The notes: generated by a model not told the origin, from the sequence alone. 35,385 nucleotides of DNA from an uncultured Rubrivirga sp. (GCA_964631085.1 CAZVWA010000004.1:1-35385), one strand, 5' to 3'; shown: positions 1 to 17,135, numbered from the stretch's first letter. Numbers and translations are program-made.

Positions 1-1144
1 TCTCCGGCTCACCGAGAACCATCCACTCGGCGATGGACTTACCAACGCCCGGACCCTCCTTGATCCATACGGCTGCCGCGGACCACAGGCCCTTCACCTC
101 GGGCGTCTCGCCGAGGATCGGTGCGCCGTCCGGGGTGAGCGATAGCAGACCGTTGCACGCGTACTTCTCACCGATCGACTCGTCTCCAACGATGTCCGGC
201 ATCAACTCCATCGCGTGCTCGTCTTGCAGATCAAAGTCCTCCTGCGTGAACGGCATCTCGGTCGGCGACAGAGCTGCTTGCTCGTTCGAGGGGATCTCGC
301 CTGCCTCGTACAAGATCGCGCGGTGGGCGTAGGAGCCGATTTCCAGGCCGGTTCCGTGCTGCCGCTCGTACATGAAGGTGTCCATGTCGCGGATGATCGG
401 CCACTCGATGTCGCCCTTGGCGTCCGCGAAGAACGGAACCGGACCGATGTCCTTCATCTGGTGAACCGCCGGCGTCAACGGAATCGCAGCACCTGCCATC
501 TCGGCGATACGCGGGCTCCAGCAACCGCAGGCAACGACGACGTACTCGGTATTGATCGTGCCTCGGTCCGTTACAACGGCAGACACCCGACCGTCGGTCA
601 CCTCGATGTCCATGACTTCGGTGTTGGGCAGGCTCGACAAGGCACCCATCTCGATGGCCTTCTCGCGCATGATCGTTCCGGCTCGAAGCGAGTCCACGAC
701 ACCCACCGACGGTGTCCAGAAGCCACCGAGAATCACTTCTTCGTCGATGTACGGCACCTTCTCCTTGCATTCAGCAGGAGTGAGCATCTGGGTGTCTTCG
801 ATCTCGAAGGACTTGGCCGACTGCATGCGTCGGTGCAATTCCTGCATCCGGTCCTCGGTACGGGCAACCTCGATACCACCGCACTCGGTGAAGACACCCA
901 TCTCCTTGTACTGGCGCATGCTCTCCAGCGTGAGTTGGGTGATCTCCTTGCTGTGGTCGGTCGGGAAGATGAAGTTCGAGGCATGCCCGGTGGAACCTCC
1001 CGGGTTGGGCAGTGGGCCCTTATCGACCTGGACGATGTCCGTCCAACCCAACCGGGCCAAATGCCACACGATCGAGTTGCCGACGATGCCTGCTCCGATG
1101 ACGACGCACTTCGCGTTGCTCGGTGCCTGCAGTTCCTCCGCCAT
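1..1144 (-). CDS. GcvT-family FAD-dependent oxidoreductase, dimethylglycine/sarcosine dehydrogenase-like (3' end outside the window)
   Basis: Not in the ORF track because it has no stop in the window. Manual translation from ATG 1144 gives MAEELQAPSNAKCVVIGAGIVGNSIVWHLARLGW...GGSTGHASNFIF (GxGxxG Rossmann motif and the STGHA flavinylation-type motif) and later NGLLSLTPDGAPILGETPEVKGLW. GGAAGG SD-like sequence upstream. Confidence 0.88.
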   Translation of the reverse strand, partial: MAEELQAPSNAKCVVIGAGIVGNSIVWHLARLGWTDIVQVDKGPLPNPGGSTGHASNFIFPTDHSKEITQLTLESMRQYKEMGVFTECGGIEVARTEDRMQELHRRMQSAKSFEIEDTQMLTPAECKEKVPYIDEEVILGGFWTPSVGVVDSLRAGTIMREKAIEMGALSSLPNTEVMDIEVTDGRVSAVVTDRGTINTEYVVVACGCWSPRIAEMAGAAIPLTPAVHQMKDIGPVPFFADAKGDIEWPIIRDMDTFMYERQHGTGLEIGSYAHRAILYEAGEIPSNEQAALSPTEMPFTQEDFDLQDEHAMELMPDIVGDESIGEKYACNGLLSLTPDGAPILGETPEVKGLWSAAAVWIKEGPGVGKSIAEWMVLGEPE

Positions 1145-1196
1145 GTGCTCTACCTTCCGTTCTTGTCGTTCTTCGTCTATTTCGGTTATTTCGCTG

Positions 1197-1862
1197 CTAA
1201 AGGGCGAGGCGCATTTCTGCCTCGAAACCTTCGATGTGCTTGCCCATTACCGTCGCGGCCCGTTCGGCATCGCCGTCTCTGATCGCTTCGAGGATTTCGC
1301 GGTGCTCGAGCACCGCCTGGTGTAGATGCGTGACCTTCGTCAATCCCAGGAACCAAATCCGAAGGGCATGTGTGTAGTAACTCTCAAGATCCTCCGCCAG
1401 GTAAGCGTTGTGGCTTGCCCGGTAGACGACGTTGTGAATGCGCTCATCGAGGTCCATCAACACTTGATCGCTGGACCACGAACGATCGAGCTCGACACCA
1501 CTGTGTTCATAGGCGGCGAGGTCGGTGAGTAGTTGGTCGATCACCTCGAGGTCGGCATCCTCACGCCGTTCAGCGGCCAACTTCGCGGCGAAGGGCTCGA
1601 GTTGCTCGCGCACCTCGCTGATGGCCATCAGATCCCGTGGGTCCACCCCGGCGACGAACATGCCGCGCCGGGGGTAGACGTCGATGAGGTGCTCGGACGC
1701 CAGTGCACGCAGGGCTTCGCGCACTGGCGTCCGGCCCAGACCGAGTTGCTCGCACAACTCGGACTCGCTGAGCACCGCCCCTGGTTCGAGCTCGGCGGTG
1801 CAAATCATGCGACGCACGCGCCGGTATGCCTGGTCGGCCAGGGACTCCGTCGTCGTGGTCAT
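1197..1862 (-). CDS. GntR-family transcriptional regulator (FCD C-terminal domain)
   Basis: wHTH signature LSESELCEQLGLGRTPVREAL...PRRG; FCD motifs DERIH and EHREIL...H. Confidence 0.93.
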   Translation of the reverse strand: MTTTTESLADQAYRRVRRMICTAELEPGAVLSESELCEQLGLGRTPVREALRALASEHLIDVYPRRGMFVAGVDPRDLMAISEVREQLEPFAAKLAAERREDADLEVIDQLLTDLAAYEHSGVELDRSWSSDQVLMDLDERIHNVVYRASHNAYLAEDLESYYTHALRIWFLGLTKVTHLHQAVLEHREILEAIRDGDAERAATVMGKHIEGFEAEMRLAL

Positions 1863-1866
1863 GGCA

Positions 1867-1903
1867 CAGATATATCAGTTTGCCACTGTCTTGTACACCA
1901 GTT
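1867..1903. promoter_or_regulatory. Candidate tandem GntR/FadR-type operator sites upstream of gntR
   Basis: CAGATATATCAGTT (1867-1880, perfect GATATATC core) and CTTGTACACCAGTT (1890-1903), 23 bp apart in an AT-rich intergenic gap. Confidence 0.5.
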
Positions 1904-1925
1904 AGCGAAATTTTTTCGTCAGGCG

Positions 1926-2507
1926 CTACGCCAACAGCGCCTCGACCGCCTCGGCAAGGCGGTCCCGGCCCACGCGGCGCACCTCCAGGGGAAGGCCCAG
2001 GGCCGCGGCGGCGTCTTCGGCCAGGCCGCGGATCTCTGCGTCGTCGGACCTACCCGCCAACCAGACCACCCGCCGGTAGTTGCCGAAGTAGTCCTCTCGC
2101 AGTTCGGGATAGCGATCTAGGCCGAGTTCGACGATCACCGTGCGGTGGAAGCCCCGAACCAGGAAGTCGGTGAGCAGATACGTGCCCGGCTCGTGCGCCA
2201 TCAACGCCGCGATCTCCGACCGGCCCGCGTAGACGTCGTAGCAGTGCGCGCCGGGAAGTCGCACAACGCCCCGCCTCTCGCACACCTCATCCAACGCCCC
2301 GTACGTGCCGCAATCGGAGTAGGCGATCACGACCGGCCCGTCTCGCGGCTCCAGCTTGTCGAGCAGCGCTTCGACTCTCCCGGCGATCTGCTCGGGATGG
2401 TTGTGCAGCAGAGGCGGAAGCGGGTGGATCGAGATTCCCCAGCCCCGCTGATTATCGAGTTCGATGAGGTCGTTGGCGAGGGCACCGCAGGCGATCACAT
2501 CGACCAT
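1926..2507 (-). CDS. DUF1638 domain-containing protein (corrinoid reactivation-associated)
   Basis: Motifs VIACGAL, LHNHPE, YSDCGT, AHCYD and GTYLLTDF; directly downstream of the RACo-type gene. Confidence 0.8.
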   Translation of the reverse strand: MVDVIACGALANDLIELDNQRGWGISIHPLPPLLHNHPEQIAGRVEALLDKLEPRDGPVVIAYSDCGTYGALDEVCERRGVVRLPGAHCYDVYAGRSEIAALMAHEPGTYLLTDFLVRGFHRTVIVELGLDRYPELREDYFGNYRRVVWLAGRSDDAEIRGLAEDAAAALGLPLEVRRVGRDRLAEAVEALLA

Positions 2508-2520
2508 TGTCCGCGCTACC

Positions 2521-4461
2521 TCAGACCGGAAATGCGAGTTCGTCCACGAAACGATCGTTGAAGTCCTCGCGATCTGACAGTTCCACGTAGCTGATCACGT
2601 TCAACAGCGAATGCGCGCCGTTGCGCTCCGAGCCGGACAGGACGGCCATCTTGGCTCCCTCGCCCGCAACGTTGCCCGCGCTCACGACGCGCGGCGGTGC
2701 GATGTCCGGGACAAGTCCGATACGAATCGCGTTCTTAGGAGAGAGGTAACTGCCGAACGAGCCCGCCAGCAGCACTTGCTGGACATCCTTTTCCTCAATA
2801 CCGAATTCTTCGAGCAAGATCGCCCAACCGGTTGAGATAGCGGCCTTAGCGAACTGCAACTCGCGCACGTCGCGTTGCGACAGATACACACCGCTGCTCG
2901 TGATCGGATCGCCGGCGAGCACGAAGACCCGCTCCTGCCCCCGCATGACGAGTCGATCCGCCACCTGGGGCGCGAGTTCCGCAGCCCGCTCATCGGGCAC
3001 GAACCGACCGGACTCGTCGATCAGGCCGACTCGCACCAACTCGGCGATGGCGTCCACGAGTCCGGAGCCGCAGATGCCGGTCGCCGCGGCATCGTCGATG
3101 ACGTCGATGTGGAGACCGGAGTCATCGATCCGGACGACTTCGATCGCCCCGGCCGCCGCGCGCATACCGCACGCGATGGACGCTGCCTCGAAGGCCGGGC
3201 CTGCAGGCGCGGCGGTGGCCAACAGCCGATCTCCGTTGCCCAGGATCATCTCGCAGTTGGTGCCGACGTCGATGAACAACCGAACTCGCTGATCACGGTC
3301 CATTCCGCAGGCAAGTGCTCCGGCGACGATGTCTCCGCCCACGTACGCACCGAGGGCGGGGAACAGGCATGCGCGGGCGCGGGCATTTACCTTGATGCCG
3401 AGCTCACTGGCCCTGACATCGGGATAGTCCTCCGCAGCCAGGATGAACGGGGCAACACCGAGGGGCTCTGGATCAATACCCAGTGCGATTTGCACCATCG
3501 TCGCGTTACCCGCAACCGCCACCTGATAGACCTCACTGCGATCGACCCCGGCCTCGACGCATACCTCTTCGGTGAGTTCGTCCAAGGTCTCGTGGGCAAG
3601 GGCTTGAAGAGAATCCAAAGCCGTGGGGTCGAGCATCGTGGCACTGATACGGCTGATCACATCAGCGCCATAGCGCTGCTGCTTGTTGAGCATCGACGAC
3701 ACCGACAGCGGCATGCCGTTGATCAAGTCCACAAGTGTCGCGACCACACTCGTGGTTCCGAGGTCGTAGGCGATCGCGAATACCCGGTCGCTGGTATCGC
3801 CGGGTTCGATCGCCACCAGGATGTCGTCGACCACCACGACTGTGACCTTGAAGTCCGCAGAACGCAGGATCTTCGGTAAGCCTCGCAATACCTGCGGGTC
3901 AGCACCCGACGCCATGTCGGTGATGCCGTCCATCACCCGACGCAGATCCGGGCGCTGGTCGGTCAGTGTCGGTTCGGGCAGCTCGAGGTAGCGCTTGAGC
4001 ACCGTCGGCCGATGGATGACCTGACGCCCGACTCCCACAGTCGACGCCTTCGGACGGGTGGTGAGAGGAGGCACGTGCACACGCAGATCACTCCAGGCGG
4101 CCGCCTGACACGCCAAGCGCCAGCCCTGCTCCATCTCCTCTTCGGTGAACGCCCGCGCATCGACGCCTCCCGCGGGCACCTCACCCTCGAGAATCTGGAC
4201 GCGGCACTTGCGGCAAGTACCGTGCCCGCCGCACGTGGAATCGACAGCGATGGCATTCCAACTGGCCACATCGAAGACGTTCACGCCGACCGGCGCGCGC
4301 ACCTGCTTGCCCGACGGTTCGAAGACCACGGACACACGCGCTACTTCCTCGGTGCCGGGATCCTCAAGTGAGGGGACCTCCGGGCCCGGGTCTTCAATGA
4401 GGACGGTCGTATCCAGTTCCTGGTCTTGACCAGTACCGGAGCCGAAGTCGCTTTCTGTCAT
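2521..4461 (-). CDS. ASKHA-domain reductive activator of corrinoid proteins (RACo/RamA-like) with N-terminal 2Fe-2S ferredoxin domain
   Basis: CGGHGTCRKC...RLAC 2Fe-2S ligands; DLGTT, DVGTNCE, AGPAFE, GICGSG and LAGSFG motifs. ATG 4461 overlaps the upstream TAA (TAATG), so it is preferred over the track start 4515. Confidence 0.9.
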   Translation of the reverse strand: MTESDFGSGTGQDQELDTTVLIEDPGPEVPSLEDPGTEEVARVSVVFEPSGKQVRAPVGVNVFDVASWNAIAVDSTCGGHGTCRKCRVQILEGEVPAGGVDARAFTEEEMEQGWRLACQAAAWSDLRVHVPPLTTRPKASTVGVGRQVIHRPTVLKRYLELPEPTLTDQRPDLRRVMDGITDMASGADPQVLRGLPKILRSADFKVTVVVVDDILVAIEPGDTSDRVFAIAYDLGTTSVVATLVDLINGMPLSVSSMLNKQQRYGADVISRISATMLDPTALDSLQALAHETLDELTEEVCVEAGVDRSEVYQVAVAGNATMVQIALGIDPEPLGVAPFILAAEDYPDVRASELGIKVNARARACLFPALGAYVGGDIVAGALACGMDRDQRVRLFIDVGTNCEMILGNGDRLLATAAPAGPAFEAASIACGMRAAAGAIEVVRIDDSGLHIDVIDDAAATGICGSGLVDAIAELVRVGLIDESGRFVPDERAAELAPQVADRLVMRGQERVFVLAGDPITSSGVYLSQRDVRELQFAKAAISTGWAILLEEFGIEEKDVQQVLLAGSFGSYLSPKNAIRIGLVPDIAPPRVVSAGNVAGEGAKMAVLSGSERNGAHSLLNVISYVELSDREDFNDRFVDELAFPV

Positions 4462-5321
4462 TACCCCTGCGCTGCCTCGCGTGCCCGATGGGCAGATATC
4501 CAGTTCATGCCCCACTCGTCATTGCCGAGCATCAGGTCCCCTGCCTTCACTGCCGTCACAATCTGTGGTGTGCGAGCGTCCATGATCGCGCTCGTCAATC
4601 CTGCACCCATCGCCATGGGAAGGAACACTGAATTAAGGGTGTGTCGGTCGGGCATTCCGAACGACACATTGGACGCACCGAGGGTCATGTTGACCCCGAT
4701 CTTGTCCGCGATCAGTTCGATCGTCTCCAAAGTCCGAACAACCATCTGCGAGTCCGCACCGATCGGCATGGCCAGCGGATCGATGACGATGTCCTCGATC
4801 GGGATTCCGTACTTGGTGGTCGCGGTCTGCACGATGTACTCCGTCAACTCGAAACGGCGTTGCGGATCTTCGGGAATCTCTTTGTCGTCGTTCGGAAGTG
4901 CGATGACGGCTGCCCCGTACTTCTTCACTAGGGGCAGGATCAGTTCCATTCGCTCATCTTCGGCGGTCACCGAGTTCACGAGCGCCTTGCCCTCGTACGC
5001 AGCGAGTCCTGCATCCAAAGCCTCGACCACCGAAGAATCGATACACAGCGGCATGTCGGTCAAACTCTGAACCAAACGGACGGCGTCGGCCAAGAGCGCC
5101 GCCTCATCCACCAGGGGTGCGCCCATGTTGACGTCGAGCATCATCGCGCCCCCGGCCACCTGGTCGGCCACGTCCTTCTCCACGGCCGAAAGGTCCCCGG
5201 AGCGCAGTTGCTCTTGGAAGGCCTTACGACCCGTGGGGTTGATGCGCTCGCCGATGATGCAGAAAGGCTGATCGGATCCGATGGTCAAAGTCTGGTTCGC
5301 GGAGCTAACGGTGGTGTGCAT
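4461..5321 (-). CDS. Pterin-binding methyl-corrinoid:tetrahydrofolate methyltransferase (AcsE / MetH folate-domain family)
   Basis: IIGERINPTG, LDVNMG, PLCIDS, ALVNS, IDPL and GASNVSFGMP motifs; SD AAGGGAG upstream. Confidence 0.9.
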   Translation of the reverse strand: MHTTVSSANQTLTIGSDQPFCIIGERINPTGRKAFQEQLRSGDLSAVEKDVADQVAGGAMMLDVNMGAPLVDEAALLADAVRLVQSLTDMPLCIDSSVVEALDAGLAAYEGKALVNSVTAEDERMELILPLVKKYGAAVIALPNDDKEIPEDPQRRFELTEYIVQTATTKYGIPIEDIVIDPLAMPIGADSQMVVRTLETIELIADKIGVNMTLGASNVSFGMPDRHTLNSVFLPMAMGAGLTSAIMDARTPQIVTAVKAGDLMLGNDEWGMNWISAHRAREAAQG

Positions 5322-5373
5322 GGTTCTCCCCTTGTGACGGGCTTTTCGTGGGTTCTTCGTGCGTGTGTAAGTG

Positions 5374-6312
5374 TCAGGCGGTCTGATGGATTGACGGGTT
5401 TGCCCCTGTTGCGAATTCCGGGCCGATCTGGAGATCGGTCACCAGTCGCCGCAAGGTGTCGTCATGACGGAAGTCGGTTATGTGAATCCCGGCAACACCC
5501 GCGAGTGACAGCGCGTGCTCGGTTTGCTCCCGGACGAGTTGGTAGGACTCCTCCGCCGGATCCTCGGCATCGGCCACTCGATCGATCACATCCGACGGGA
5601 CGTGGATTCCGGGCACGTTGCCTTCCATGAAGCGCAATGCCCCGGCCGTCTTGGTCAAGATCACCGTCGGCAGGATCGCTGCGCCTCGTGTGACACCGTT
5701 GGAACGACAGGCCTCGATGAATGCCTCGAGTTTGTTCGGCTCGTAGCCGATCTGCAGCTGCAGGAACTTCGCGCCCCCGTCTACCTTCAAGCGCGCCCGT
5801 CGGGCACGTATCTCCACTGGCGGCGCGAACGGATTCTCGACCGCTCCGATGAGGAGTTCTCGGTGGTGCTTGAGCTTGCGCCCGGAGAGGTACGTCCCGC
5901 GGGAGATTCCGTTCATGATCGACACCAACTGCGGACCATCGATGTCGAATACCCGTCGAGCCTCCGGCTCGTCGCCCGCCGTGACGTCGTCGCCGGTCAG
6001 CGCGCAGAAGGCGGTCACCCCGTGCATTTGGGCACCCACGATGTCCGCTTGAGCTGCGATCCGGTTCTTGTCCCGGCACACCACCTGCATGATCGGCTCG
6101 CCACCCACCTGCTTCACGGCGATGGCCATCGAGACGTTGCTTGCGTGCGCGTGCGCCGCGGGGTTGTCCGTGATGTTCACCGCATCCACGTACGGCCGAT
6201 AGTGGTCGAACGCTTCGCGCACGGTTTCGAGATCTCCCCCATCCAGGGACGGAAACTCAGCCGTCACGATGGGTCGTCGCCGACTTTCGACGAGGCTTGC
6301 GAACTCCGACAT
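5374..6312 (-). CDS. metF: Methylenetetrahydrofolate reductase
   Basis: TAEF, DAVNITDN, CRDKNR, ALTGD and GGAKFLQLQ motifs. ATG 6312 overlaps the upstream TGA (TGATG). Confidence 0.85.
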   Translation of the reverse strand: MSEFASLVESRRRPIVTAEFPSLDGGDLETVREAFDHYRPYVDAVNITDNPAAHAHASNVSMAIAVKQVGGEPIMQVVCRDKNRIAAQADIVGAQMHGVTAFCALTGDDVTAGDEPEARRVFDIDGPQLVSIMNGISRGTYLSGRKLKHHRELLIGAVENPFAPPVEIRARRARLKVDGGAKFLQLQIGYEPNKLEAFIEACRSNGVTRGAAILPTVILTKTAGALRFMEGNVPGIHVPSDVIDRVADAEDPAEESYQLVREQTEHALSLAGVAGIHITDFRHDDTLRRLVTDLQIGPEFATGANPSIHQTA

Positions 6313-6686
6313 CACTGCTCCGCCAACCAACCGTCAGGCGTCTCACGGTCCTTGCCGTTCATCAAGTTGAGCCAGGATGAATCCCCTTTAAGGGAATTGT
6401 TCACCGGTGGTCGAAGGTGCCCCACCTCTTCGCGCCACGAGGACGGGAGCAGAGGCAGGGTCTCAGCCCGGTGGTTGGCCTTCACCCAAACGCACCGCAT
6501 CTCAGGCTTCACCTCGCAGTTACCGTCAGCGCGAACTCCCCCGCACGGCCCGTTGCGAAGTGTCTTGGGGCAGGTCATCGGGCAGGTCATCCCCGTTGAG
6601 TGCAAAACGCACTGGCCGCACATCTGGCAGTCCCACACGGGTCCCTTGACCACGTGCTCGGCCATCGGCAGCAACTTGCGCAGCAT
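6312..6686 (-). CDS. MTHFR C-terminal-domain / MetV-like Cys-rich metal-binding protein
   Basis: Eight cysteines in CQMCGQC...CPMTCPKTLRNGPCGG...CEV...CVW; translationally coupled to metF. Confidence 0.85.
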   Translation of the reverse strand: MLRKLLPMAEHVVKGPVWDCQMCGQCVLHSTGMTCPMTCPKTLRNGPCGGVRADGNCEVKPEMRCVWVKANHRAETLPLLPSSWREEVGHLRPPVNNSLKGDSSWLNLMNGKDRETPDGWLAEQ

Positions 6687-6688
6687 GG

Positions 6689-7345
6689 TCAGGCTCCGGA
6701 CCGAACCGCGAGGAGTTCCTTGGCGCGGCGCACGGCCGTTGCAGCATCAGCGGCGTACCCGTCGGCGCCTGAGACGTCGGCGTACTCCTGGGTAACCGGC
6801 GCACCCCCGACCATGATGATGATGTCGTCGCGCAGCCCAGCCTTCTCGATGGCGTTGATGTTCACCTTGAACATCGGCATCGTGGTGGTCAAGAAGGCTG
6901 ACATACCGACGATGTCCGGCTTGTGTTCCTGGATGGCTTCGATGAACTTCTCCGGTGGCACCTGCACGCCGATATCGATCACGTGGAAGCCGGCGCCTTC
7001 GAGCATGATGTTGACCAAGTTCTTACCGATGTCGTGAACATCGCCCTTAACCGTTCCCATCAAGAACGTGCCCACACTCTCTGCACCCGTCTGGGCCAGC
7101 AGTGGTCGGAGTACTTCTAGGGCACCGCTCATCGCCTTGCCCGCGATCAGCATCTCGGGCACGAAGAAATCACCCCGCTCGAACCGAGCGCCCACCTCTT
7201 CGAGCGCGGGAATCAACGCGTCGAACAGCAGCGAGTCCGGGGTCATGCCCAGCTCGAGACCAGAATTGGTGTGCTCGAGAACCGCCGGCGCGTTGCCGAC
7301 CATGGTCTCGTCGTAGAGCGCCTTCAACACATCGTCCGGAGTCAT
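6689..7345 (-). CDS. Stand-alone corrinoid (B12)-binding protein (MttC/MtgC-like)
   Basis: Cap domain (VGARFERGDFFVPEML), DxHxxG motif DVHDIGKNLV, SAFLTTT and VGGA. ATGA overlap with the iclR stop. Confidence 0.95.
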   Translation of the reverse strand: MTPDDVLKALYDETMVGNAPAVLEHTNSGLELGMTPDSLLFDALIPALEEVGARFERGDFFVPEMLIAGKAMSGALEVLRPLLAQTGAESVGTFLMGTVKGDVHDIGKNLVNIMLEGAGFHVIDIGVQVPPEKFIEAIQEHKPDIVGMSAFLTTTMPMFKVNINAIEKAGLRDDIIIMVGGAPVTQEYADVSGADGYAADAATAVRRAKELLAVRSGA

Positions 7346-8145
7346 GCAGCACCCACCCTTCCTCCTGTTTGAGTGACATTGGTGTCGGTCGAGCCCTCAT
7401 TCCCCTCAAAGCCCAGCGCCGCCGACGCGGCCAGTGCCGCATCGACGAGGAGCTGCGCGTACTCCTGCGCAACCTCGCGTGACATTCGCAGGGTCGGTCC
7501 GGAAATGGAAAGAGCCGCAACGACACTGCCGTCCGCGGTGAACACCGGAGCGGCTACGGCGATGAGTCCAGGTTCTAGTTCGGAATCGGCCATCGCCCAG
7601 CCCCTGAGCCGCGTCTTCTCCAGATCGTCGGCGAGTCGTTGGCGCGAGGTGATCGTGCGTGAGCTGATCTTGCGCAGCCGACCCGGCGGGAGTTCGGCGC
7701 CGTAGGCCAAGAAGACCTTTCCCAGCGCTGAAGCGTGGAGAGGGATCTTCTGATCCCCCCAATTCACCCCGCCGATCAAATAAGTGCAGTCCAGTTGGCT
7801 GATCTGCTCGACCTCTTGTCCGTCGAGGACCGCGAGGTTGATCTTCTCGCCGGTCGCTTCGCTGAGAGCGGTCATATGCGGGCGGCAAGCCTCGATGAGT
7901 TCGTCGGTCGGACGCCGAGAATGGGCGAAGCGCGTCACCGCACCCCCCGGACGGACGGCACCGTCCTCTCTCCTGGAAATGAGATCGTGCCGCTCGAGGC
8001 TGGAGAGCAGTCGAGACAGGGTGCTCTTGGCTAGCTCACTCGACTCCTGCAGCTCGCCGAAGGTAAGCGGTTCCTCGGCTTCGAGGACCGTCAGGAGCAG
8101 ACCCGCCGCACGGTCAACAGCTTGGGTACCCGACACAGACGCCAC
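7342..8145 (-). CDS. IclR-family transcriptional regulator
   Basis: N-terminal HTH (LAKSTLSRLLSSL), PLHASALGKVFLA and AVAAPVF...ALSISGP motifs; GTG start with GGGAG SD. Confidence 0.93.
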   Translation of the reverse strand: MASVSGTQAVDRAAGLLLTVLEAEEPLTFGELQESSELAKSTLSRLLSSLERHDLISRREDGAVRPGGAVTRFAHSRRPTDELIEACRPHMTALSEATGEKINLAVLDGQEVEQISQLDCTYLIGGVNWGDQKIPLHASALGKVFLAYGAELPPGRLRKISSRTITSRQRLADDLEKTRLRGWAMADSELEPGLIAVAAPVFTADGSVVAALSISGPTLRMSREVAQEYAQLLVDAALAASAALGFEGNEGSTDTNVTQTGGRVGAA

Positions 8146-8194
8146 TACGCTCCCACTTCCCAGAACTTCACGGGCCCAGACTCTTCCCTACGGG

Positions 8195-8225: not shown

Positions 8226-8226
8226 G

Positions 8227-8255: not shown

Positions 8256-8281
8256 GGGTGACGTGACCAGCGAGGAGACCC

Positions 8282-9721
8282 ATGTTCCACAACTCGATGC
8301 CCCGCTACGAGATCTTGTCCCAGGACGCACTCGCCACGCTGGATTCCGGGTGGCGGCGAATAGTGAGCGAGATCGGCATCCAGTTCGCCAAGCCCGAGGC
8401 GGTCGAACTCTTCGCAGCCAACGGTCAAAAGGTGGACGGAGAGACCGTCTTCTTGGACCCGGAATTCGTCCTCGAGCAAGTCGCTAAGGCGCCGAGCGAA
8501 TTCGACATGCAGGCACGCAATCACGATCGTGATGTGCACATCGGGGGCGACTCGATGGTCTTTTCGAGCGTCTACGGCCCACCCTTCTTCAGGCGAGGCG
8601 ACGAGCGGCGTGACGGCACGCTCGCGGATTTCGAAGACTTCGCCAAGCTCGCTCAATCCTTCGATGTCATGGACAGCGTCGGCGGCGTCGTCGTGGAACC
8701 GAACGATGCGCCCTTGGATTCGCGTCACCTCGACATGGTTTACCGAGCCTTGACCATGACCGACAAGATCATCATGGGCAACGTGGTGACCGGGACCAAC
8801 GCTGAAGACACCGTCGCCATGGGCGAAATGGTGTTCGGCGGCCGTGAGTCCATCGAGGACAAGCCCTTCTGCATCTCGTTGATCAACTGCAATTCGCCTC
8901 TGCGGTGGGACGACCGGATGCTCGATTCCCTCTTCGTCTACACGCAGGCGCGCCAACCGTGCATCGTGACCCCGTTCCTGTTGATGGGAGCGATGGCCCC
9001 GGTCACCATTCCCGCTGCGCTCGCTCAGCAGATCGCGGAGGCCCTCTCGGGTGTCGCCCTCACCCAGCTCATCAACCCCGGAGCACCGGTCGTCTTCGGA
9101 TCATTCCTGTCCAACATCGATATGCAATCGGGCTCGCCTCAATTCGGAACCCCTGAGTCCGGCATCGGTCTCCTGGCAACCGGTCAGATCGCGCGCCACT
9201 TCGGGCTGCCATTCCGCGGCGGCGGCGGCCTCAATTCCTCGCAGGTGCCCGATGCGCAGGCTGGGTACGAGGCAATGATGACTCTCATGCCGGCGTTCCT
9301 TTCCGGCACGAACTTCATCATGCATTCGGCCGGCTGGCTCGAGGGCGGATTGGTGTCCAGTATCGAGAAGTACGTGATCGACGTTCAATTGCTGGAGATG
9401 CTGCAGCACGAGTTCACTCCGCTGGAGATCGACGAAGCTTCGATGGCGTTCGACGCGCACACCGAGGTCGGGCACGGTGGACACTTCCTAGGCGCCATGC
9501 ACACGATGGAGCGCTTCCGCGACTGCTTCTACCGCCCGTTCCTGTCCAGTGCGGACAACTTCGAACGCTGGACGCGCAACGGATCTAAGGACACCGCCAC
9601 CCGCGCGGGCGAGATCGCCGCGACCAAGATCGAGGAATACCAAGAGCCCCCCATGGACGAGGCCCTCAAGGAGCAGCTCCAAGACTTCGTTGCGCGACGT
9701 CGCACCGAACTAGGCGACTAA
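8282..9721 (+). CDS. mttB: Trimethylamine methyltransferase (MttB) superfamily protein, non-pyrrolysine; probable glycine betaine:corrinoid methyltransferase (MtgB-like)
   Basis: [53 protein letters not shown] and GHFLG motifs; no in-frame TAG; GAGGAG SD. Confidence 0.92.
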
Positions 9722-9732
9722 CCTTCGGCTCC

Positions 9733-11388
9733 ATGAAAGAGTCCTTCGACTACGTCATCGTCGGTGGTGGATCAGCGGGAAGCGCTCTAGCCAACAGATT
9801 GAGTGAGGACGGCACGAAAACCGTCCTGCTCCTGGAAGCGGGTAGGCGCGACTGGTGGTGGGAGGTGTACATCCACATGCCGGCGGCCTTGACCTTCCCG
9901 ATCGGTAACCCACGCTACGACTGGATGTACGCCAGCGAGCCCGAACCCGGCATGAATGGACGCCGCGTCACCGCCGGTCGAGGAAAGATCCTGGGTGGTT
10001 CCAGCAGCATCAACGGAATGATTTTCCAGCGGGGCAACCCGCTCGACTACGAGAAGTGGGCCAGCAACCCGGGCATGGAGTCGTGGGACTACGCCCACTG
10101 CCTTCCCTACTTCAAGAAGATGGAGAACTGCCTCGCCGGCGCCGACGAATGGCGCGGAGACTCCGGGCCCCTCGTCGTGACCCGCGGCCAGGTCCGAAAC
10201 CCACTGTTCTCGGCGTTCTTCGAAGCCGTTCAGCAGGCCGGATATCCGCTCACGGCTGACGTCAACGGGTACAAACAGGAGGGTTTCGCCGCATTCGACG
10301 GCAGCCTCTACAAGGGAAGACGCGTCAACGCCTCCAAGGCTTACCTGACGCAGGCCCGCAAACGCCCGAACCTCACTATCCGAACGCGCTCGCTGGTGAC
10401 CAAGATCAACATGTCCGGAACCCGAGCCACCGGGGTTCAGGTCCGCGACCGGCGCGGCAAGACCTCCGACGTCTCCGCAGGAGAGGTCATTTTGAGCGGT
10501 GGAGCGATCAACTCTCCGCAATTGCTGCAGCTGTCGGGCATTGGCAACGCCGAGCACCTGAAGTCGGTCGGCGTTGATGTCGTCCACCACCTTCCGGGGG
10601 TCGGCGAGAACCTTCAGGACCACCTCGAGGTGTATGTCCAGCACTCATGCACACAACCGGTCTCGCTGAATCCGAATCTCCAGTTCTGGCGCCGTCCCTT
10701 CATTGGTGCCGCGTGGCTGTTCGGGCGCACTGGACCGGGGGCCTCCAACCACTTCGAAGCCGGGGGGTTCGCCCGCAGCAATGAAGACGTCGACTACCCG
10801 AACCTGATGTTCCACTTCCTGCCCATCGCCGTCCGTTACGACGGCACGGCACCGGAGTCCGGTCACGGCTACCAGGTACACATCGGCCCGATGTTCTCCG
10901 ACGCACGAGGGTCGGTAAAGATCACCTCCACCGACCCCACCAAGGCGCCGGCCATGCAGTTCAACTACCTCACCACCGAGCAGGACAAGCGCGAGTGGGT
11001 CGAGGCGATTGCGGTTGCCCGGGACATCCTCAGCCAATCGGCATTCGCGCCCTACAGCGGCGGGGAGATCTCGCCGGGACCCGATGTCCGGACCGACGAG
11101 GAGATCTTGGAGTGGGTCCGCCGGGACGGCGAAACGGCCTACCACCCCTCCTGCACCTGCAAGATGGGCGTCGACGAAATGTCCGTCGTCGACCCCGAAT
11201 CCATGAGGGTGCACGGCATAGAGGGCCTTCGGGTGATCGACGCGTCCGTCATGCCCACGATCACGAACGCGAATATCTACGCGCCCACCATGATGATCGC
11301 GGAAAAGTCAGCAGATGGCATCAATGGGGTAAATCCGCTCCCACCGGAGCCGATTCCGTTCTATCGTCACCGCGACCACACCGCCTAG
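9733..11388 (+). CDS. betA: Choline dehydrogenase (GMC oxidoreductase)
   Basis: [43 protein letters not shown] and [12 protein letters not shown] motifs; adjacent to betB and the betaine ABC transporter. Confidence 0.92.
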
Positions 11389-11442
11389 GGCAGCGGGCTG
11401 ATCGGCGACGCACCGACTATCGACGAGGGGGCTCGTAAGACC

Positions 11443-12927
11443 GTGACCGGACTGCTGATCGACGGCAGGTGGGTACCCGCCGAAAGCGGGGACACCCGGA
11501 CCATCATCTGCCCAGCCGACGGGCGCGAAGTGGACACTGTTCCCGAAGCATCCGCGGCCGACACCGAGAAGGCCATCGCCGCTGCTCGCCGGGCGTTCGA
11601 TGACGGCGGGTGGCGACGCACATCCGCCTGGGAGCGGGCCGCCCTGCTCAACGCGGTGGCCGATCGCCTCGAGGCCGAGATCGAAACGGTTGCCGCCGCC
11701 GAGTCGGCCGACACCGGCAAGCGACTCGAGGAATCCAGGTACGACGTAGCCGACGTCGTCTCGTGCTTTCGGTACTTCGCAGGCCTCATCCCCAAAGACA
11801 GCGGACGCGTCATCGACACCGGGAGTCACACAACTATTTCGCGGGTGCAGTACGAGCCCGTGGGCGTGTGCGGGCTGATCACGCCCTGGAACTACCCGCT
11901 GCTGCAGGCAAGTTGGAAAGTCGCGCCCGCTCTCGCGGCCGGGTGCACGTTTGTCCTCAAGCCCAGTGAGTTGACACCGCACACCTCGATTTTGCTGATG
12001 CAGTATCTGATGGACGCCGGGTTACCCGCTGGAGTTGGCAACCTGATCCTGGGCGCCGGCGCAACGGCGGGGGCGCCCTTGGCCTCTCATCCGGACATCG
12101 ACATGGTGTCCTTCACCGGCGGTCTCATCACCGGTCGCGCGATCATGGCCGCTGCCGCACCGACGGTTAAGAAAGTGGCCCTCGAGCTCGGTGGCAAGAA
12201 CCCCAACGTCGTATTCGCCGACGCCGACTGGGATGCGGCGATCGATAACGCCCTGACGGCCGTCTTCCTACACTCAGGGCAGGTCTGTTCGGCCGGTGCC
12301 CGACTCATCGTTCACGAGAGCATCCACGATGAATTCGTCGACGCTCTCGTACTTGCCGCCGAAGGCATAAGGCTCGGCGGACCCAACGATGACAAAGCCC
12401 AAACCGGCACGCTCATCAGCGCGGGCCATCGGGACAAGGTTGCTGCGTACGTAGACCAGGCTGTCGCCGAGGGTGCCGTGCTGAGATGCGGCGGTGCGCA
12501 ACCAGACGATCCGGCGCTCGCGAACGGTTACTTCTACCTCCCGACGATCCTCGACAAGTGCAACGCGTCCATGACCTGCGTTCAGGAAGAGTCCTTCGGC
12601 CCCGTTTTGACAGTCGAAACTTTCCGCACCGAAGACGAAGCGATCCGTATCGCCAACGACACCTACTACGGACTAGCCGGGGCCGTCTGGACGTCCGACG
12701 TGTCACGCGGACAGCGCGTAGCCAACGCACTTCGCCACGGGACCATCTGGATCAACGACTTCCACCCCTACCTTCCGCAGGCCGAATGGGGCGGGTTCAA
12801 GCAGTCGGGTGTCGGTCGGGAACTCGGTTCCCAGGGATTCGCCGAATACCTCGAAGCCAAGCACGTGTACCAAAACCTCGATCCGAAGCCCACCGAGTGG
12901 TTCGACGTACCGAGCAAGGAGTCATGA
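11443..12927 (+). CDS. betB: Betaine-aldehyde dehydrogenase (ALDH family)
   Basis: [35 protein letters not shown] and WGGFKQSG motifs; substrate assigned from context. Confidence 0.85.
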
Positions 12928-14000
12928 TGACGATGACCAGCCCCGCGCCCGCAGAAGTCAGCACAGATGCGGCGATCTCCGTTCGCGGACTTTGGAAGAT
13001 CTTCGGGGAGAAGGCACACGAGATCATCGACTCCCCCGACGCCCGACTTCCGCGTCCGGAATTGCTGGAGAAGACAGGCTGCGTGGCCGCCGTCCGTGAC
13101 GCGTCATTCGACGTCGCCAACGGCGAGGTATTCGTTGTCATGGGCCTGTCAGGATCGGGTAAATCGACGCTGGTTCGCTGCCTGACTCGATTGATCGAGC
13201 CGACGGCGGGCGAGGTCTTCTTCGATGGCGAAGACATCCTCACAGCCTCCAAGGCACGCCTGCGTGAACTCCGCCGTACCAAGTTTTCGATGGTCTTCCA
13301 GCACTTCGGCCTGCTGCCCCATCGTCGGGTCATCGACAACATCGCCTACTCACTCGAGGTCAACGGAGTCAAGAAGGAGACCCGTCACGCCCGCGCCATG
13401 GAGGTCATCGAACTCGTCGGCCTCGACGGTTACGCCAACCACTTCCCCGAGCAACTCTCCGGAGGTATGCAACAGCGCGTCGGCCTCGCCCGAGCGCTCG
13501 CCGTCAACCCCGAAGTCATGTTCCTCGATGAGCCCTTCAGCGCCCTGGACCCACTCATTCGGCGCGATATGCAAAACGAAGTCAAGCGGTTGCATCAGGA
13601 CCTAAACAAGACCATGGTGTTCATCACCCACGATCTATCGGAGGCAATGAAGCTCGGGGACCGGATCGCCATCATGCGCGACGGAGACATCGTGCAAATG
13701 GCAACACCAGCCGATCTCGTCATGCATCCGGCCGATGACTACGTCGCGGACTTCACCAACGACATCCCGAAGTCACATGTGCTTACCGTCGGGTACATCG
13801 CTCGGCCTGCTGGTGATGGCGAGGATATCTCCGGCCAACCGATCGACGCCGACATCATCATCCGTGACGCAATCCCGCGCATCGTCAACGCCACCGGACC
13901 GGTCCCGGTCACTCGCGCCGGTGAAAGCATCGGTGTAATCGGAACGGACGACATCTTGCATCTCGTGGCCGAGGATGCATCCGAAGGCAGCGCTACGTGA
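12927..14000 (+). CDS. proV: Glycine betaine/choline ABC transporter ATP-binding protein
   Basis: GLSGSGKST Walker [29 protein letters not shown] and [12 protein letters not shown]. Start placed at ATG 12927 behind AAGGAG (12924 and 12933 are alternatives); the track start 12486 lies inside betB. Confidence 0.9.
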
Positions 14001-15961
14001 ACGCTCTGGAGTCGCTCCCGACATGGATGCGCAAACGCAGCACCCTCGTCCTTTTGGTCGTGGGCGTTTGGTTCGTGCTCGGAACAATCCTCGCCGGTGT
14101 CCACACTCTGGAACTGTCAACCGCAACGAACACCCCGGCAACCGACTGGCTTCGGGAATTCGCGGCATCGATTCGCGGTAGCCGAGCGGAGTCGCCGATC
14201 TTCGTCTATTTCTTCAATCCACTTCGTGGCGGAATCGAAGGGTTTATCGAGATCATCCGGGCGGTTATCGCGGTACCCGCTTCCGGCAACGTCATCCCGA
14301 TCATCGGATGGTTCGGGGTGGTCGCCCTCGTTGGCTACATCGTCTACGCGTCGTCCAACTGGCGGACATCACTGCTCTCGATGGCGCTGCTCACCGCCTG
14401 CGGAATGCTCGGGGTCTGGGCCTACACGATGGACACGCTGGCCATGACCGTCGGAGCGGTCCTGCTGTCCCTGGCGATCGCGCTCCCGATAGGCATTTGG
14501 GCGGGATTGAGCGATCGGGTGATGGCCTTCATCAGACCGATCCTCGACCTCGCGCAGATTCTCCCGACGTTGGTCTACCTGGCTCCGCTCGCACTCGTAT
14601 TCCTGATTGGAATCGCCGCCGCCACCATCGCGACCATGATCTACAGCATCCCGATCTGCGTACGCATCACCGCGCACGCGATTCGAAGCCTCAAGGCCGG
14701 TCCCATCGAGGCGGCCGAGTCCATGGGGTCCACCCGAGGTCAAATGCTCCGCAAAGTCCAACTCCCCATGGCACGTCGCACCATCATCCTTGGAATCAAT
14801 CAAACGACACTCGCTGCGCTGTCCTTCGTCGTCATCGCCGCACTGATCGGGGCACCTGGGCTCGGTAAGCCGGTCATTGAAGCCCTCACCATTCGCAACG
14901 TGGGTGATGGAGTCGTGGCTGGGCTGGCAGTGGTGTTCCTCGCCGTCATGCTGGACCGGGCGACGACCGCCGCCGTTCAGCACAGTGCGGAACTACCTCC
15001 CGAGGGCCCGGCACTCATCCGTCGACGCATCGGTCTGATCGCTGGTGGCGTGCTGACACTGGTCGCCATCTACCTTTCACGCTTCCAACTGTGGGCCGCG
15101 GTCTTCCCCGAAAATCTCGTGATAGGCGAGTACATCGCTAACGCGGCGGACGCCGTGACGGAGTGGATCACCTCGACTTTCTACTTCCTCACCATCGGCC
15201 TGAACGAGAACTTCACGATCCACGTCCTCAATCGTGTGGAATCGCTTCTTGCGAACACTCCCTGGTACATCACGATCATCGCCATCTCGCTTCTTGCCGC
15301 CATCATCGGCGGTCGTTTCGTTGCGATCTTGTCCGCGGTCCTTCTCGGAGCCATCGTCTTGATCGGTCTGTGGAACGACGCCATGGTCACCCTCACGCAG
15401 GTGCTCATCGCAACGGGAATCGTGATGCTCATCGGCGTCGTGGTGGGGGTGCTGGCGGGTCGCAGCGCCCGCATCGAACGGGCTCTGAAACCCATACTCG
15501 ATGCCGGACAGACGCTTCCCGCTTTCGTCTACCTCGTGCCCGTTCTCGCCCTCTTCGGGCCATCTCGTTTCGCAGCGATCGTCTGCGGTGTCTTCTACGC
15601 AACGCCCGTTGTCGTGCGTGTCGTCGCAGATGGGGTCCGCGGAGTGCCGAGCGACATGGTGGAAGCAGCCGTGTCTTCAGGGTCGAGCACCACGCAGGTC
15701 GTGACGAAGGTGCAGTTGCCTGCGTCCAAACGCTCGCTTCTCCTGGGTGCAAACCAGGGCATGATCTTCGTTCTCGCCGTTGTTGTCATCGGCGGGTTCG
15801 TAGGAGCAGGTGGCCTCGGCTACCTGGTCATCGTTGGCCAGTCCAAACCGGAGCTTCAGGGCAAAGGACTGGCGGCAGGCCTGGCAATCGTCTTGCTAGG
15901 TGTTGTGATGGACCGCATCGCGCAAGCCGGGGCGCGTCGCAATGAGAAGAAACCCGCATGA
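13997..15961 (+). CDS. proW: Glycine betaine ABC transporter permease with two fused ProW-like modules
   Basis: Two EAA loops ([20 protein letters not shown] and [20 protein letters not shown]) and two PILD.xQ.LP..VYL motifs. Confidence 0.88.
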
Positions 15962-16021
15962 GGGCGGGATGCAGTACCAACGTCCACCGCGGACGTCGGT
16001 AACTCCGAAGGGAATACAGGT

Positions 16022-17077
16022 ATGAGGAATCACCTACGGGGGCGCCTAGCGGTGCTTCCCGCGCTGGCTGCAGCCAGCCTGGTGCTCGCCGCCTGCGGCG
16101 GCGACGTGAATGAGGCGGCCACCGAGGCCACCGAGGAGGCTGTCGCAGAGGAGACAGTCGCCGAAGAAGCGCCCGAAGAAGAGGCCGCTGAGGAAATGCC
16201 CGAGGAAGAAGCAGTCGTCGCCGACTGCGGCGACTGGGGCGTTGCCATGCACGCATGGGTTGGCTACACCGCTTCGGCTCAGGTGCTGTCCGACGTAGCT
16301 CGAGATGCTCTCGGCTGCAACATCGAGCAGATTCAGCTCGAAGAAGCCGGCGTCACCTACGACGCCATGGAAGCCGGCTCGGTAGACGTCATCATCGAGG
16401 ACTGGGGCGGCGGCCGCTGGCAAGAGTGGGTTGACCGTGGAGCAGTCCAAGAGGCTGGCTACAACGGCAACGTCGGCCTCATCGGCATGTACGTCCCACA
16501 GTGGATGTGCGAGGAGTACCCGGACATCTCGGACGGCACCAAGCTCAACGAGTACGCCGAACTCTTCGTGACTCCTGAGTCCGGTGGCAAGGGCGCTTGG
16601 TACGAGGGTCCCCCCGGATACACCACGATCGGCGAGAAGATCATCAACGCCTACGACCTCGACTTCCAGGTCATCAACACCGGGTCCGAGGCTGCGCTGA
16701 TCGAGATGTTCACGCAGGCTGCCGAGAACCAGGAGCCGGGTCTGGGCTACTTCTACGAGCCGCAGAACTTCCTGGCTCAGGTAGAGCTCTGCCGGGTCAA
16801 CTTCCCAGAGAACGACTGGAGCGATACCGCGGATGCCAGCGGCTTGACCGACTACCCGGAAACCCCGCTGGTCAAGTTGGCAACCTCTGAACTCCTTGAT
16901 TCAGGCTCGCCGTTCGCCACACTCGTGTCGAACTTCGAGTGGACCAATGGCGATCAGAACTCTGTCGCTGCGGCGATCGAGGGTGGCGCCAGCCCGGAGG
17001 AAGCTGCTGCCGAATGGATCAGCGCTAACACCGACACCGTCAACATGTGGTTGGAGGGCACGGGAGCAAGCATGTAG
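16022..17077 (+). CDS. proX: Glycine betaine/choline ABC transporter substrate-binding lipoprotein
   Basis: Lipobox LAAC, acidic linker, AWVGY, IEDW, GMYVP, GSEAAL and YFYEP motifs; last gene of the ABC operon. Confidence 0.85.
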   Translation: MRNHLRGRLAVLPALAAASLVLAACGGDVNEAATEATEEAVAEETVAEEAPEEEAAEEMPEEEAVVADCGDWGVAMHAWVGYTASAQVLSDVARDALGCNIEQIQLEEAGVTYDAMEAGSVDVIIEDWGGGRWQEWVDRGAVQEAGYNGNVGLIGMYVPQWMCEEYPDISDGTKLNEYAELFVTPESGGKGAWYEGPPGYTTIGEKIINAYDLDFQVINTGSEAALIEMFTQAAENQEPGLGYFYEPQNFLAQVELCRVNFPENDWSDTADASGLTDYPETPLVKLATSELLDSGSPFATLVSNFEWTNGDQNSVAAAIEGGASPEEAAAEWISANTDTVNMWLEGTGASM

Positions 17078-17095
17078 TTCCCGGCTAAGGCCACT

Positions 17096-17135
17096 GTGGG
17101 GGTCCCAGCATCTGCTGGGGCCCCCACTCTTTTTT
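17096..17135 (+). terminator. Rho-independent terminator closing the mttB-betAB-ABC operon
   Basis: GTGGGGGTCCCAGCA-TC-TGCTGGGGCCCCCAC stem (one G:U pair) followed by TCTTTTTT. Confidence 0.9.

Follow-up and report, generated by a model that had tools for sequence, protein, structure and literature searches.

The first 17,135 positions of a 35,385-nucleotide stretch of DNA deposited under an uncultured Rubrivirga sp. (GCA_964631085.1, CAZVWA010000004.1:1-35385; the whole stretch is referred to below as the window) carry a divergent gene cluster. This cluster probably represents an actinobacterial, aerobic, cobalamin-dependent MtgBCD system for betaine demethylation, joined to choline oxidation and uptake in one IclR-controlled locus. 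The window is the entire contig C4 of host genome G000, which comprises 1.45 Mb in 146 contigs with 68.9% completeness and 0.85% contamination. The pathway reading is supported by homology, gene context, and residue patterns, from which every activity is deduced.

In the proposed route, an ABC importer would take up choline and/or betaine, and BetA and BetB would convert choline to glycine betaine. A single MttB-family enzyme would transfer one betaine methyl group to Co(I) of the corrinoid protein MtgC, leaving dimethylglycine, and MtgD would pass the methyl group from MtgC to tetrahydrofolate (THF). MetVF would oxidize methyl-THF to methylene-THF, a direction that is itself presumed, and a RACo-like activase would use ATP to re-reduce Co(II) formed in air. 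DUF1638 may play an auxiliary part. An enzyme combining DAO and GcvT regions (DAO-GcvT) would convert dimethylglycine to sarcosine and a second methylene-THF, with its electrons probably passing to an electron-transfer flavoprotein (ETF) encoded just past the contig end. A formate-THF ligase (FTHFS) and a formate-dehydrogenase-like enzyme, both seen in a relative, would finish C1 oxidation. An earlier note made without database searches (the sequence-only reading) had drawn the chain from choline through betaine to dimethylglycine and methyl-THF, and on to methylene-THF and sarcosine; this chain fits the homology, context, and residue patterns described below.

Organization of the Locus

Every gene named by the sequence-only reading is recovered by Pfam and NCBIfam searches at the position it was given (Table 1). 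The two arms show translational coupling at their junctions, and the overlapping start and stop codons reported earlier are real. ATGA overlaps of 4 nt join the IclR and MtgC genes, betB and the ATPase gene, and the ATPase and permease genes, while overlaps of 1 nt join MetV to MetF and MtgD to RACo, provided that translation begins at the internal ATGs at 6312 and 4461. These ATGs are the likely starts of the MetF and RACo genes, whose open frames extend to 6330 and 4515, respectively. The likely start of the ATPase gene, the ATG at 12924, overlaps the betB stop and has an AAGGAG ribosome-binding site. The mttB gene is a 479-aa frame with no in-frame stop and lies 11 nt from betA; it heads an operon with betA and betB.

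The RACo-like activase matches PDB entry 3zyy (3.8e-104). MtgC lies below both NCBIfam MtgC cut-offs, and its residues D102, H104, and G107 are invariant across 34 orthologues. A sequence search of the PDB with MetF gives no match at E ≤ 0.01, and Rfam gives no match within the window at its gathering thresholds. The enzyme described as a GcvT-family dehydrogenase is represented in the window by its DAO part; its GcvT part lies outside the window and is seen in the closest related locus, L001. A terminator-like hairpin closes the right arm near position 17135, where the sequence-only reading had placed the end of the cluster.

Table 1. Features of the window, with the number of related loci in which each gene is found. 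Loci are the best 80 of 569 confirmed MttB relatives, scored by tblastn (E ≤ 1e-10, at least half of the query); 45 of the 80 have full 10-kb flanks.
Feature	Position	Strand	Match or remark	Loci (of 80)	Full-flank loci (of 45)
DAO part (N-terminal 381 aa) of dimethylglycine dehydrogenase/oxidase homologue (DAO-GcvT enzyme)	2-1144	-	Pfam DAO 1.4e-48; cut by contig end	25	20
GntR/FCD-family regulator	1197-1862	-	GntR 9e-19, FCD 1e-24	13	
DUF1638 protein	1926-2507	-	PF07796 1.7e-22	51	37
RACo/RamA-like ATP-dependent corrinoid reductive activase	2521-4461	-	Fer2 + RACo_linker + Raco_middle + RACo_C_ter (1.5e-76)	63	43
MtgD/MtgA-like pterin-binding methyl-corrinoid:THF methyltransferase	4461-5321	-	Pterin_bind 1.7e-27; NCBIfam NF005719 319 bits, cut-off 259	67	45
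MetF-type methylene-THF reductase	5374-6312	-	MTHFR 9.9e-18	20	11
MetV-like small subunit (MTHFR C-terminal domain family, DUF5981)	6312-6686	-	PF12225 1.9e-24	21	12
Corrinoid protein MtgC	6689-7345	-	B12-binding_2 + B12-binding; PDB 1y80 2.6e-53	72	45
IclR-family regulator	7342-8145	-	HTH_IclR + IclR_C; first in left operon	75	44
Palindromic box (candidate operator)	8204-8219	.	6-base arms, 4-base spacer; in 136-bp iclR-mttB intergenic region		
Non-pyrrolysine MttB-superfamily methyltransferase (probable MtgB)	8282-9721	+	MTTB (PF06253) 7.6e-187		
Choline dehydrogenase BetA	9733-11388	+	GMC oxidoreductase; NCBIfam betA TIGR01810 852 bits, above cut-off 732.1	56	35
BetB-like betaine-aldehyde dehydrogenase	11443-12927	+	Aldedh 7.4e-169	51	34
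ABC transporter ATPase	12924-14000	+	ABC_tran 3.4e-33	51	34
Fused double permease, choline/betaine-type ABC importer	13997-15961	+	BPD_transp_1, two stretches		
OpuAC-type substrate-binding protein	16022-17077	+	OpuAC 1.3e-31		
Intrinsic-terminator-like hairpin closing right arm	17096-17127	+	14-pair stem with 11 G-C pairs, then T run		
Acyl-CoA-ligase-like (AMP-ligase) gene and overlapping 256-aa frame without Pfam match	17134-19532		3' of terminator		
MacB/FtsX permease, ABC ATPase, and HlyD-type adaptor	22389-26061	-	Tripartite efflux operon		

The MttB Enzyme and Its Substrate

The MttB-family protein is a probable glycine betaine:corrinoid methyltransferase (MtgB), judging from its homologues, its neighbours, and its predicted substrate-binding residues. 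By sequence it stands at a similar distance from three solved structures, namely 4yyc (2.7e-128) and two betaine methyltransferases, 2qne (1.8e-118) and 9yce (5e-118), and the pyrrolysine enzyme 7xcl is far more distant (7.5e-44). A pyrrolysine-dependent trimethylamine methyltransferase was considered and rejected, as the gene has no in-frame UAG and scores 292 bits against TIGR02369 (cut-off 525).

Picking et al. (PMC13080624) showed betaine binding by Y97, R312, H348, and F356 in Desulfitobacterium hafniense MtgB. The aligned columns of the window protein are Y98, R312, H348, and G356. Among the 80 MttB orthologues, Y98 is found in 79, and R312, H348, W352, and G356 are found in all 80; the Sinorhizobium meliloti MttB-family protein has the same five residues. 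The strict four-residue betaine motif of the D. hafniense type is absent, and with Gly in the F356 column the window protein is not classed as a strict member of the glycine-betaine-specific MtgB motif class. The invariant Trp352 may substitute for F356.

Ten actinobacterial MttB paralogues, 23-54% identical and none of them beside betA, were aligned for comparison. Eight of these (38-54% identity) are not beside mtgC and retain the Arg, His, and Trp residues, with Gly or Ala in place of Tyr98. In the two most divergent paralogues, none of these three residues is kept, and position 98 is Ala. Tyr98 therefore tracks the betA-linked clade, which agrees with betaine as the substrate. Exactly one MttB gene is present in each of five genomes examined, and the alternative betaine enzyme GbcB is below cut-off in 5 of 5 genomes examined. 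A single MttB gene heading a betA/betB operon gives this enzyme clade a cleaner link to betaine than is available in roseobacters with multiple paralogues.

Second MttB paralogues in other Actinomycetes (L087-L094, 38-54% identity) adjoin DAO-type oxidoreductases and aldehyde dehydrogenases rather than corrinoid genes. They probably act on other methylated amines by way of the shared MtgC/MtgD core.

Conservation among Actinomycetes

The 80 loci compared here are 71-98% identical to the window in MttB, and they include the cultured carriers Nostocoides jenkinsii (L020), Phycicoccus (among them P. jejuensis, L050), Nocardioides (among them N. aquiterrae, L042), and Agilicoccus. A conserved synteny of this kind had been proposed as a check on the sequence-only reading, and the cluster is indeed conserved across these loci. 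The gene counts in the 45 full-flank loci (Table 1) show that the arrangement exceeds chance.

MetV and MetF are found in a minority of loci. In 35 loci, an MTHFR-like gene of 278-297 aa instead lies beside DUF1638, with 33-34 bits against PF02219 (cut-off 24) and 1.7e-28 against PDB entry 7xg9. One of the two types of MTHFR (methylene-THF reductase) is present in 41 of the 45 full-flank loci, and none has both. Interconversion of methyl-THF and methylene-THF thus appears to be a conserved part of the unit that is supplied by two unrelated enzymes, and by sequence comparison MetVF is displaced by an unrelated MTHFR in most actinobacterial lineages.

In a class-wide sample of 301 Actinomycetes genomes, a tally that includes G000 and the unpublished G023, MttB is found in 25 genomes (24 of the 294 of high quality) and in 17 of 141 genera. 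It is found in none of five other genomes of the window's own family.

A Candidate Operator and Expression

The intergenic region between the two arms contains a palindrome 78 nt 5' of the mttB start. Among the 78 loci with enough upstream sequence, the palindrome is perfect in 31, has one mismatch in 25 and two in 5, and is absent from 17. Its copies always lie upstream of mttB with a variable spacer, and the only perfect copy in the 1.45-Mb genome is the one at 8204-8219. Inspection of the sequence and pattern scans revealed the 6+6 palindrome; an automated inverted-repeat search of 8130-8295 with a minimum length of 10 returned none. Allowing up to two mismatches, the window contains one match where 1.04 are expected by chance, so the weight of the palindrome comes from its conservation across loci. 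This conservation supports a single control point for both arms, to which the IclR protein presumably binds. Promoter-like matches are not above chance, with 2 found and 1.6 expected.

Two RNA libraries from different years, one of them DNase-treated, contain contigs identical to the window that map to parts of both arms, namely MetV/MetF, iclR, mttB, the end of betA, and the binding-protein gene. As such libraries can contain DNA, these contigs are a weak hint that both arms are expressed, and the bins without RNA-library contigs (X23, 1-1308 and 9811-11118; most of X24) do not imply silence.

One DNA contig (run X1) joins position 1784 to 13458, skipping 11,673 bases, with 20 letters on its shorter side. 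A deletion variant without the cluster core was rejected as too weakly anchored by these 20 letters.

Continuation beyond the Contig End

The gene for the dimethylglycine enzyme is cut by the contig end but is complete in the closest relative. The L001 orthologue (L001:291-2819) is an 842-aa protein with DAO, FAO_M, GCV_T, and GCV_T_C domains. Its best PDB match is N,N-dimethylglycine oxidase 1pj5 (2.2e-151), and it also matches mitochondrial dimethylglycine dehydrogenase 5l46 (2.3e-85). The domain architecture and full-length similarity of a dimethylglycine oxidase/dehydrogenase are thus found in the L001 orthologue, and the window copy contains only the DAO part. A GCV_T fragment on G000 contig C128 was rejected as the missing C-terminal half because it is only 25% identical to the L001 protein; it is taken to be a housekeeping GcvT.

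In the relative with the 98%-identical MttB, the DAO-GcvT gene is followed by ETF beta (with an overlapping start), ETF alpha, and FTHFS (860 bits). The directly adjoining ETF genes suggest an ETF-linked dehydrogenase rather than an O2-using oxidase. Three smaller frames past FTHFS lies the gene for a 948-aa molybdopterin enzyme whose domains are those of a formate dehydrogenase alpha subunit. G000 contig C67 carries counterparts of this formate-dehydrogenase-like gene (98% identical) and of its neighbours, at 91-98% identity overall. ETF beta adjoins the cluster in 12 of the 80 loci, a number that flank length restricts, and FolD is located elsewhere in the relatives' genomes.

The cluster had been described as self-contained. 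This description does not hold, since the contig end cuts a unit that continues in the relative into ETF, FTHFS, and a formate-dehydrogenase-like gene, with FolD elsewhere. The unit is larger than the span first assigned to it and reads as a putative complete pathway from betaine methyl groups to formate and CO2.

A gene of about 100 aa matching the Pfam family Virulence_fact (PF13769) lies beside the formate-dehydrogenase-like gene in the window's lineage (L100:9807-10100 in G001, G000:C67:1126-1416, and L086:7081-7383). In the S. meliloti mtg cluster, a gene annotated as a virulence factor directly adjoins MetV. The PF13769 gene may be an unrecognized accessory of C1 and folate redox enzymes.

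Evidence against the Betaine Route and Alternative Readings

Several observations weigh against the betaine route as drawn above. MttB falls under every NCBIfam cut-off, shares only about 45% identity with homologues of any characterized system, and has Gly where D. hafniense MtgB has F356; compensation by Trp352 is weakened by the paralogues, eight of ten of which also have this Trp. The best model for BetB is TIGR01804 at 589.3 bits, below the cut-off of 668.6, and the permease scores 333 bits for ChoW and 310 bits for ProW, each under its cut-off. The betA gene is out of reach in 24 of the 80 loci, 10 of them among the 45 with full flanks. The 68.9%-complete G000 assembly lacks ETF and FTHFS, which are seen only in the relative, and no sarcosine-oxidizing enzyme has been identified.

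The best-surviving alternative is that the left arm is mainly a methionine synthase with its MTHFR. MtgC, MtgD, and RACo would then form a split MetH with an MtgE-like module encoded elsewhere, and MttB would feed betaine methyl groups into methionine as BHMT does, leaving C1 and energy harvest secondary. This is unlikely as the primary role. Several comparative observations favour it. The close relatives G001 and G002 (about 2.2 Mb) lack both MetE and the MetH reactivation domain. They have a stand-alone S-methyltransferase of 294-298 aa whose best-scoring model is BHMT (289 bits, below the cut-off of 338). This protein shares 45.7% identity with S. meliloti Bmt, named MtgE by Mausz et al. 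(PMC12478193). In G000 and G001, PF02219 matches nothing but the cluster MetF, and the two matches in G002 lie together beside that genome's own cluster.

The distribution of MetH points the same way. The MetH marker used here is the reactivation domain PF02965; an N-terminal limit of 1e-40 missed some MetH genes, such as that of G304. In a set of 45 genomes, all 13 without PF02965 carry an MtgE-like gene (263-312 bits), all 28 without an MtgE-like gene have PF02965, and 4 have both. These genomes are interrelated and the counts are not independent, with the 13 that lack PF02965 spanning at least four genera as well as the window's own relatives.

Genome G245 lacks MttB, DUF1638, IclR, MetVF, and betAB but keeps MtgC (82%), MtgD (65%), and RACo (60%) together, along with an MtgE-like gene (65%). 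The congeneric G186 (L099; G245 corresponds to L097 and L098) has the full cluster. Such a remnant would be expected of a shared core that serves a split methionine synthase. The MtgC-MtgD-RACo group of G245 adjoins FolD, and no MetH marker is found in this genome. The dual role has also been shown genetically in Ruegeria pomeroyi, according to the text of Mausz et al. (PMC12478193).

As an account of the primary role, however, the split methionine synthase must contend with the rest of the locus. The betA and betB genes, importer, and dimethylglycine enzyme, together with the ETF, FTHFS, and formate-dehydrogenase-like gene of the relative, point to a catabolic rather than a biosynthetic route. 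The same cluster is also present in genomes that keep MetH (G003, G004, G024, G053, G082, and G304). The two roles are compatible, and the question is which is primary. An MtgE-like gene is not found in the 68.9%-complete G000 but is present in G001 and G002; G001 also carries an MmuM-like gene. Comparative genomics thus indicates that MtgC, MtgD, and RACo likely have a second role as a split methionine synthase, which the sequence-only reading overlooked.

Betaine demethylation as the function of MttB also has to be weighed against action on another methylated amine, such as proline betaine, carnitine, or gamma-butyrobetaine, with betAB and the transporter only supplying betaine as an osmoprotectant. 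The missing F356, the low identity to any MtgB, and the occurrence in Actinomycetes of MttB paralogues with presumably different substrates are compatible with this possibility, as are the salt-marsh labels of DNA runs containing the window, a habitat in which osmoprotection matters. However, the carboxylate-binding R312 and H348 and the cation-pi residue Y98 are kept, and the aligned paralogues lack this Tyr. The mttB and betA genes are 11 nt apart in one operon and linked in 56 of the 80 loci, the same locus encodes a dimethylglycine enzyme, and MttB is single-copy in the five genomes examined. Another substrate is therefore quite improbable. A chance juxtaposition of an osmoprotectant operon and an unrelated corrinoid methyltransferase operon, for which the 24 loci without a nearby betA might be cited, has a negligible likelihood given a divergent layout conserved over many genera, a conserved palindrome in the shared 136-bp intergenic region, and a betAB operon headed by mttB itself.

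Cobalamin Supply

The description of the cluster as self-contained also fails with respect to vitamin B12. The corrin-synthesis markers CbiC and CobS were found in none of G000, G001, G002, and G003, and both are present in Nocardioides G004. As these corrin-ring and CobS markers were not found, B12 is probably imported. The only cobalamin riboswitch of G000 (C51:3121-3251) precedes a group of genes (C51:3121-8830, L084) consisting of a weak prenyltransferase-toroid match, two frames without Pfam matches, a double ABC ATPase, and an ECF S-component. This operon likely serves B12 or cobalt uptake. The host likely scavenges B12, as judged from a genome that is 68.9% complete.

DUF1638

DUF1638 follows MttB closely. 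It is found in 23 of the 301 class-sample genomes, all of which are MttB-positive, and in the two MttB-positive genomes without it, MttB is very divergent or fragmented. Four cysteines (C7, C66, C76, and C89) and two histidines (H35 and H88) are invariant in 49 DUF1638 homologues, a pattern suggestive of a metal or Fe-S site. AlphaFold2 models the protein with confidence (pLDDT 93.4, pTM 0.86). A Foldseek search of the PDB with this model gave no match at E ≤ 0.001; the best was 2.5e-3, and TM-scores were at most 0.37.

A predicted complex of DUF1638 with MtgC scores 0.46, and the best of three controls scores 0.00. Of 80 solved complexes, 58 reached the complex-score mark, as did 2 of 110 mismatched pairs; only 7 of the 80 did so with scores up to 0.60, a range that also holds both of the passing mismatches. 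The DUF1638-MtgC runs agree in at least 97% of contacts, with a partner pLDDT of at least 87. These predictions lend weak support to a DUF1638-MtgC complex.

The text of Price et al. reports methionine auxotrophy in a Phaeobacter inhibens DUF1638 mutant (PMC5764234). The absence of DUF1638 from G245 conflicts with that phenotype.

Taken together, the comparative data lean modestly toward a broader view of the cluster. In this lineage, its MtgC, MtgD, and RACo, with a stand-alone MtgE-like protein, would also form the cell's only B12-dependent methionine synthase core, and its MTHFR would be the only one. A single IclR-controlled locus and scavenged cobalamin would then underlie methionine synthesis, the folate C1 pool, and osmolyte catabolism alike. 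The pair G186 and G245 would then illustrate a core that outlives its betaine branch, and DUF1638 would belong to the MttB branch and not to reactivation as such.

Host Genome and Neighbouring Genes

The host had been read as a probable actinobacterium, and its nearest relatives confirm this assignment. The closest public loci belong to metagenome-assembled genomes labelled 'Candidatus Nanopelagicales bacterium', an order within Actinomycetes. In L001, MttB is 98% identical to the window protein and the other cluster proteins are 88-99% identical. The G+C content of the window is even throughout (0.605-0.641). The terminal oxidases, for which a check had been suggested, are represented by two haem-copper oxidase subunit I (COX1) genes, which indicate that the host respires oxygen.

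Some record titles are at odds with their content. Of the genomes holding L005, L008, and L009, one is labelled 'Rubrivirga sp.' and two are labelled 'Bifidobacterium breve', and all three carry this actinobacterial cluster with an MttB identity of 79-92%. These labels likely reflect mis-binning or mislabelling.

Window DNA is present in 22 DNA runs, 21 labelled as salt-marsh metagenome and 1 as seawater, all from 2018. The runs may come from a single campaign, with the source sample possibly among them.

The remaining genes of the window are unrelated to the cluster and include the efflux system, DUF885, MazG, mfd, pth, and the ribosomal protein L25 gene. The AMP-ligase gene beyond the terminator is found in 5 of the 80 loci, which are the nearest relatives only, and the frame overlapping it is likewise confined to these relatives.

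Significance

Aerobic cobalamin-dependent betaine demethylation was recognized only in 2025, and the same machinery appears to be widespread, though patchy, in aerobic Actinomycetes. Its carriers include cultured soil, sludge, and mangrove genera that may lend themselves to genetic work. The locus offers a candidate regulator-operator pair. The comparative data also suggest that B12 availability limits methionine synthesis and osmolyte turnover in some carriers, which bears on vitamin cross-feeding in marshes and estuaries.

Comparison with Known Systems

Mausz et al. (PMC12478193) showed that the aerobe R. pomeroyi needs mtgC and mtgD both to grow on betaine and to make methionine, and that betaine raises the levels of two MttB-family proteins, a RamA-like protein, DUF1638, and MetF2. 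Their text describes co-located mtg clusters in S. meliloti and in Alpha-, Gamma-, and Deltaproteobacteria; it names Proteobacteria apart from the 5% of ocean mtgC reads that it assigns to Actinomycetota. P. inhibens has a split MetH, a RamA-like protein, and DUF1638 in the text of Price et al. (PMC5764234), and a preprint reports a phenotype for its mtgB1 deletion (bioRxiv 10.64898/2025.12.19.695462). The novelty claimed by the sequence-only reading is therefore overstated, since the same kind of system has already been shown genetically in aerobic R. pomeroyi. Its statement on Actinobacteria agrees with a literature search, covering the text of the key papers, in which no paper describing the system in that group was found.

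The inferred betaine step resembles that of D. hafniense MtgB/MtgC/MtgA (2qne, 9yce), in which, in the text of PMC13080624, a betaine methyl group passes to THF via a corrinoid protein. Unlike that system, the window enzyme has Gly at F356, the host respires oxygen, and the cluster adds MetVF, betAB, and a dimethylglycine enzyme.

The RACo-like activase shares with RACo (3zyy, 4c1n) a four-domain layout of [2Fe-2S] ferredoxin, linker, middle, and ASKHA ATPase domains. It differs in presumably serving a methylamine-type corrinoid protein in an aerobe, and it lies below the NCBIfam AcsV and RamA cut-offs.

The DAO-GcvT enzyme, as seen in the L001 orthologue, has the full-length DAO and folate-binding GcvT regions of dimethylglycine oxidase 1pj5 from Arthrobacter globiformis and of the mammalian dehydrogenase (5l46, 4pab). 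Its gene is directly followed in the relative by ETF beta and alpha, which suggests an ETF link of the mitochondrial type.

The closest parallel is the proteobacterial MtgBCD(E) system of R. pomeroyi, P. inhibens, and S. meliloti. The annotated S. meliloti region contains an MttB-family gene divergent from a cobalamin-binding protein gene, along with DUF1638, an MTHFR and its C-terminal-domain partner, a methyl-THF:cobalamin methyltransferase, an ASKHA protein, and bmt. The window proteins are 44.6% (MttB), 44.7% (MtgC), 47.9% (MtgD), 36.9% (MetF), 52.4% (MetV), 31.7% (RACo), and 41.8% (DUF1638) identical to their S. meliloti counterparts. Shared features are a non-pyrrolysine MttB, a corrinoid protein, a pterin-binding methyltransferase, a RamA/RACo-like activase with a ferredoxin domain, DUF1638, a MetF paralogue with MetV, and an aerobic host. 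The relatives' genomes have an MtgE/Bmt-like gene away from the cluster and often lack MetH. The actinobacterial locus differs in its Actinomycetota host, in a single-copy mttB that comes first in an operon with betA, betB, and an ABC importer, and in its IclR regulator and conserved palindrome. An unrelated MTHFR replaces MetVF in most actinobacterial lineages, and protein identity to the proteobacterial system is only about 32-52%. The locus is thus a phylum-level addition to a kind of system published in 2025 and not a new kind. What it adds is the joining of betAB to a single-copy mttB, the conserved palindrome, the replacement of one kind of MTHFR by another, a continuation that takes in ETF, FTHFS, and a formate-dehydrogenase-like gene, and a comparative case for a split methionine synthase.

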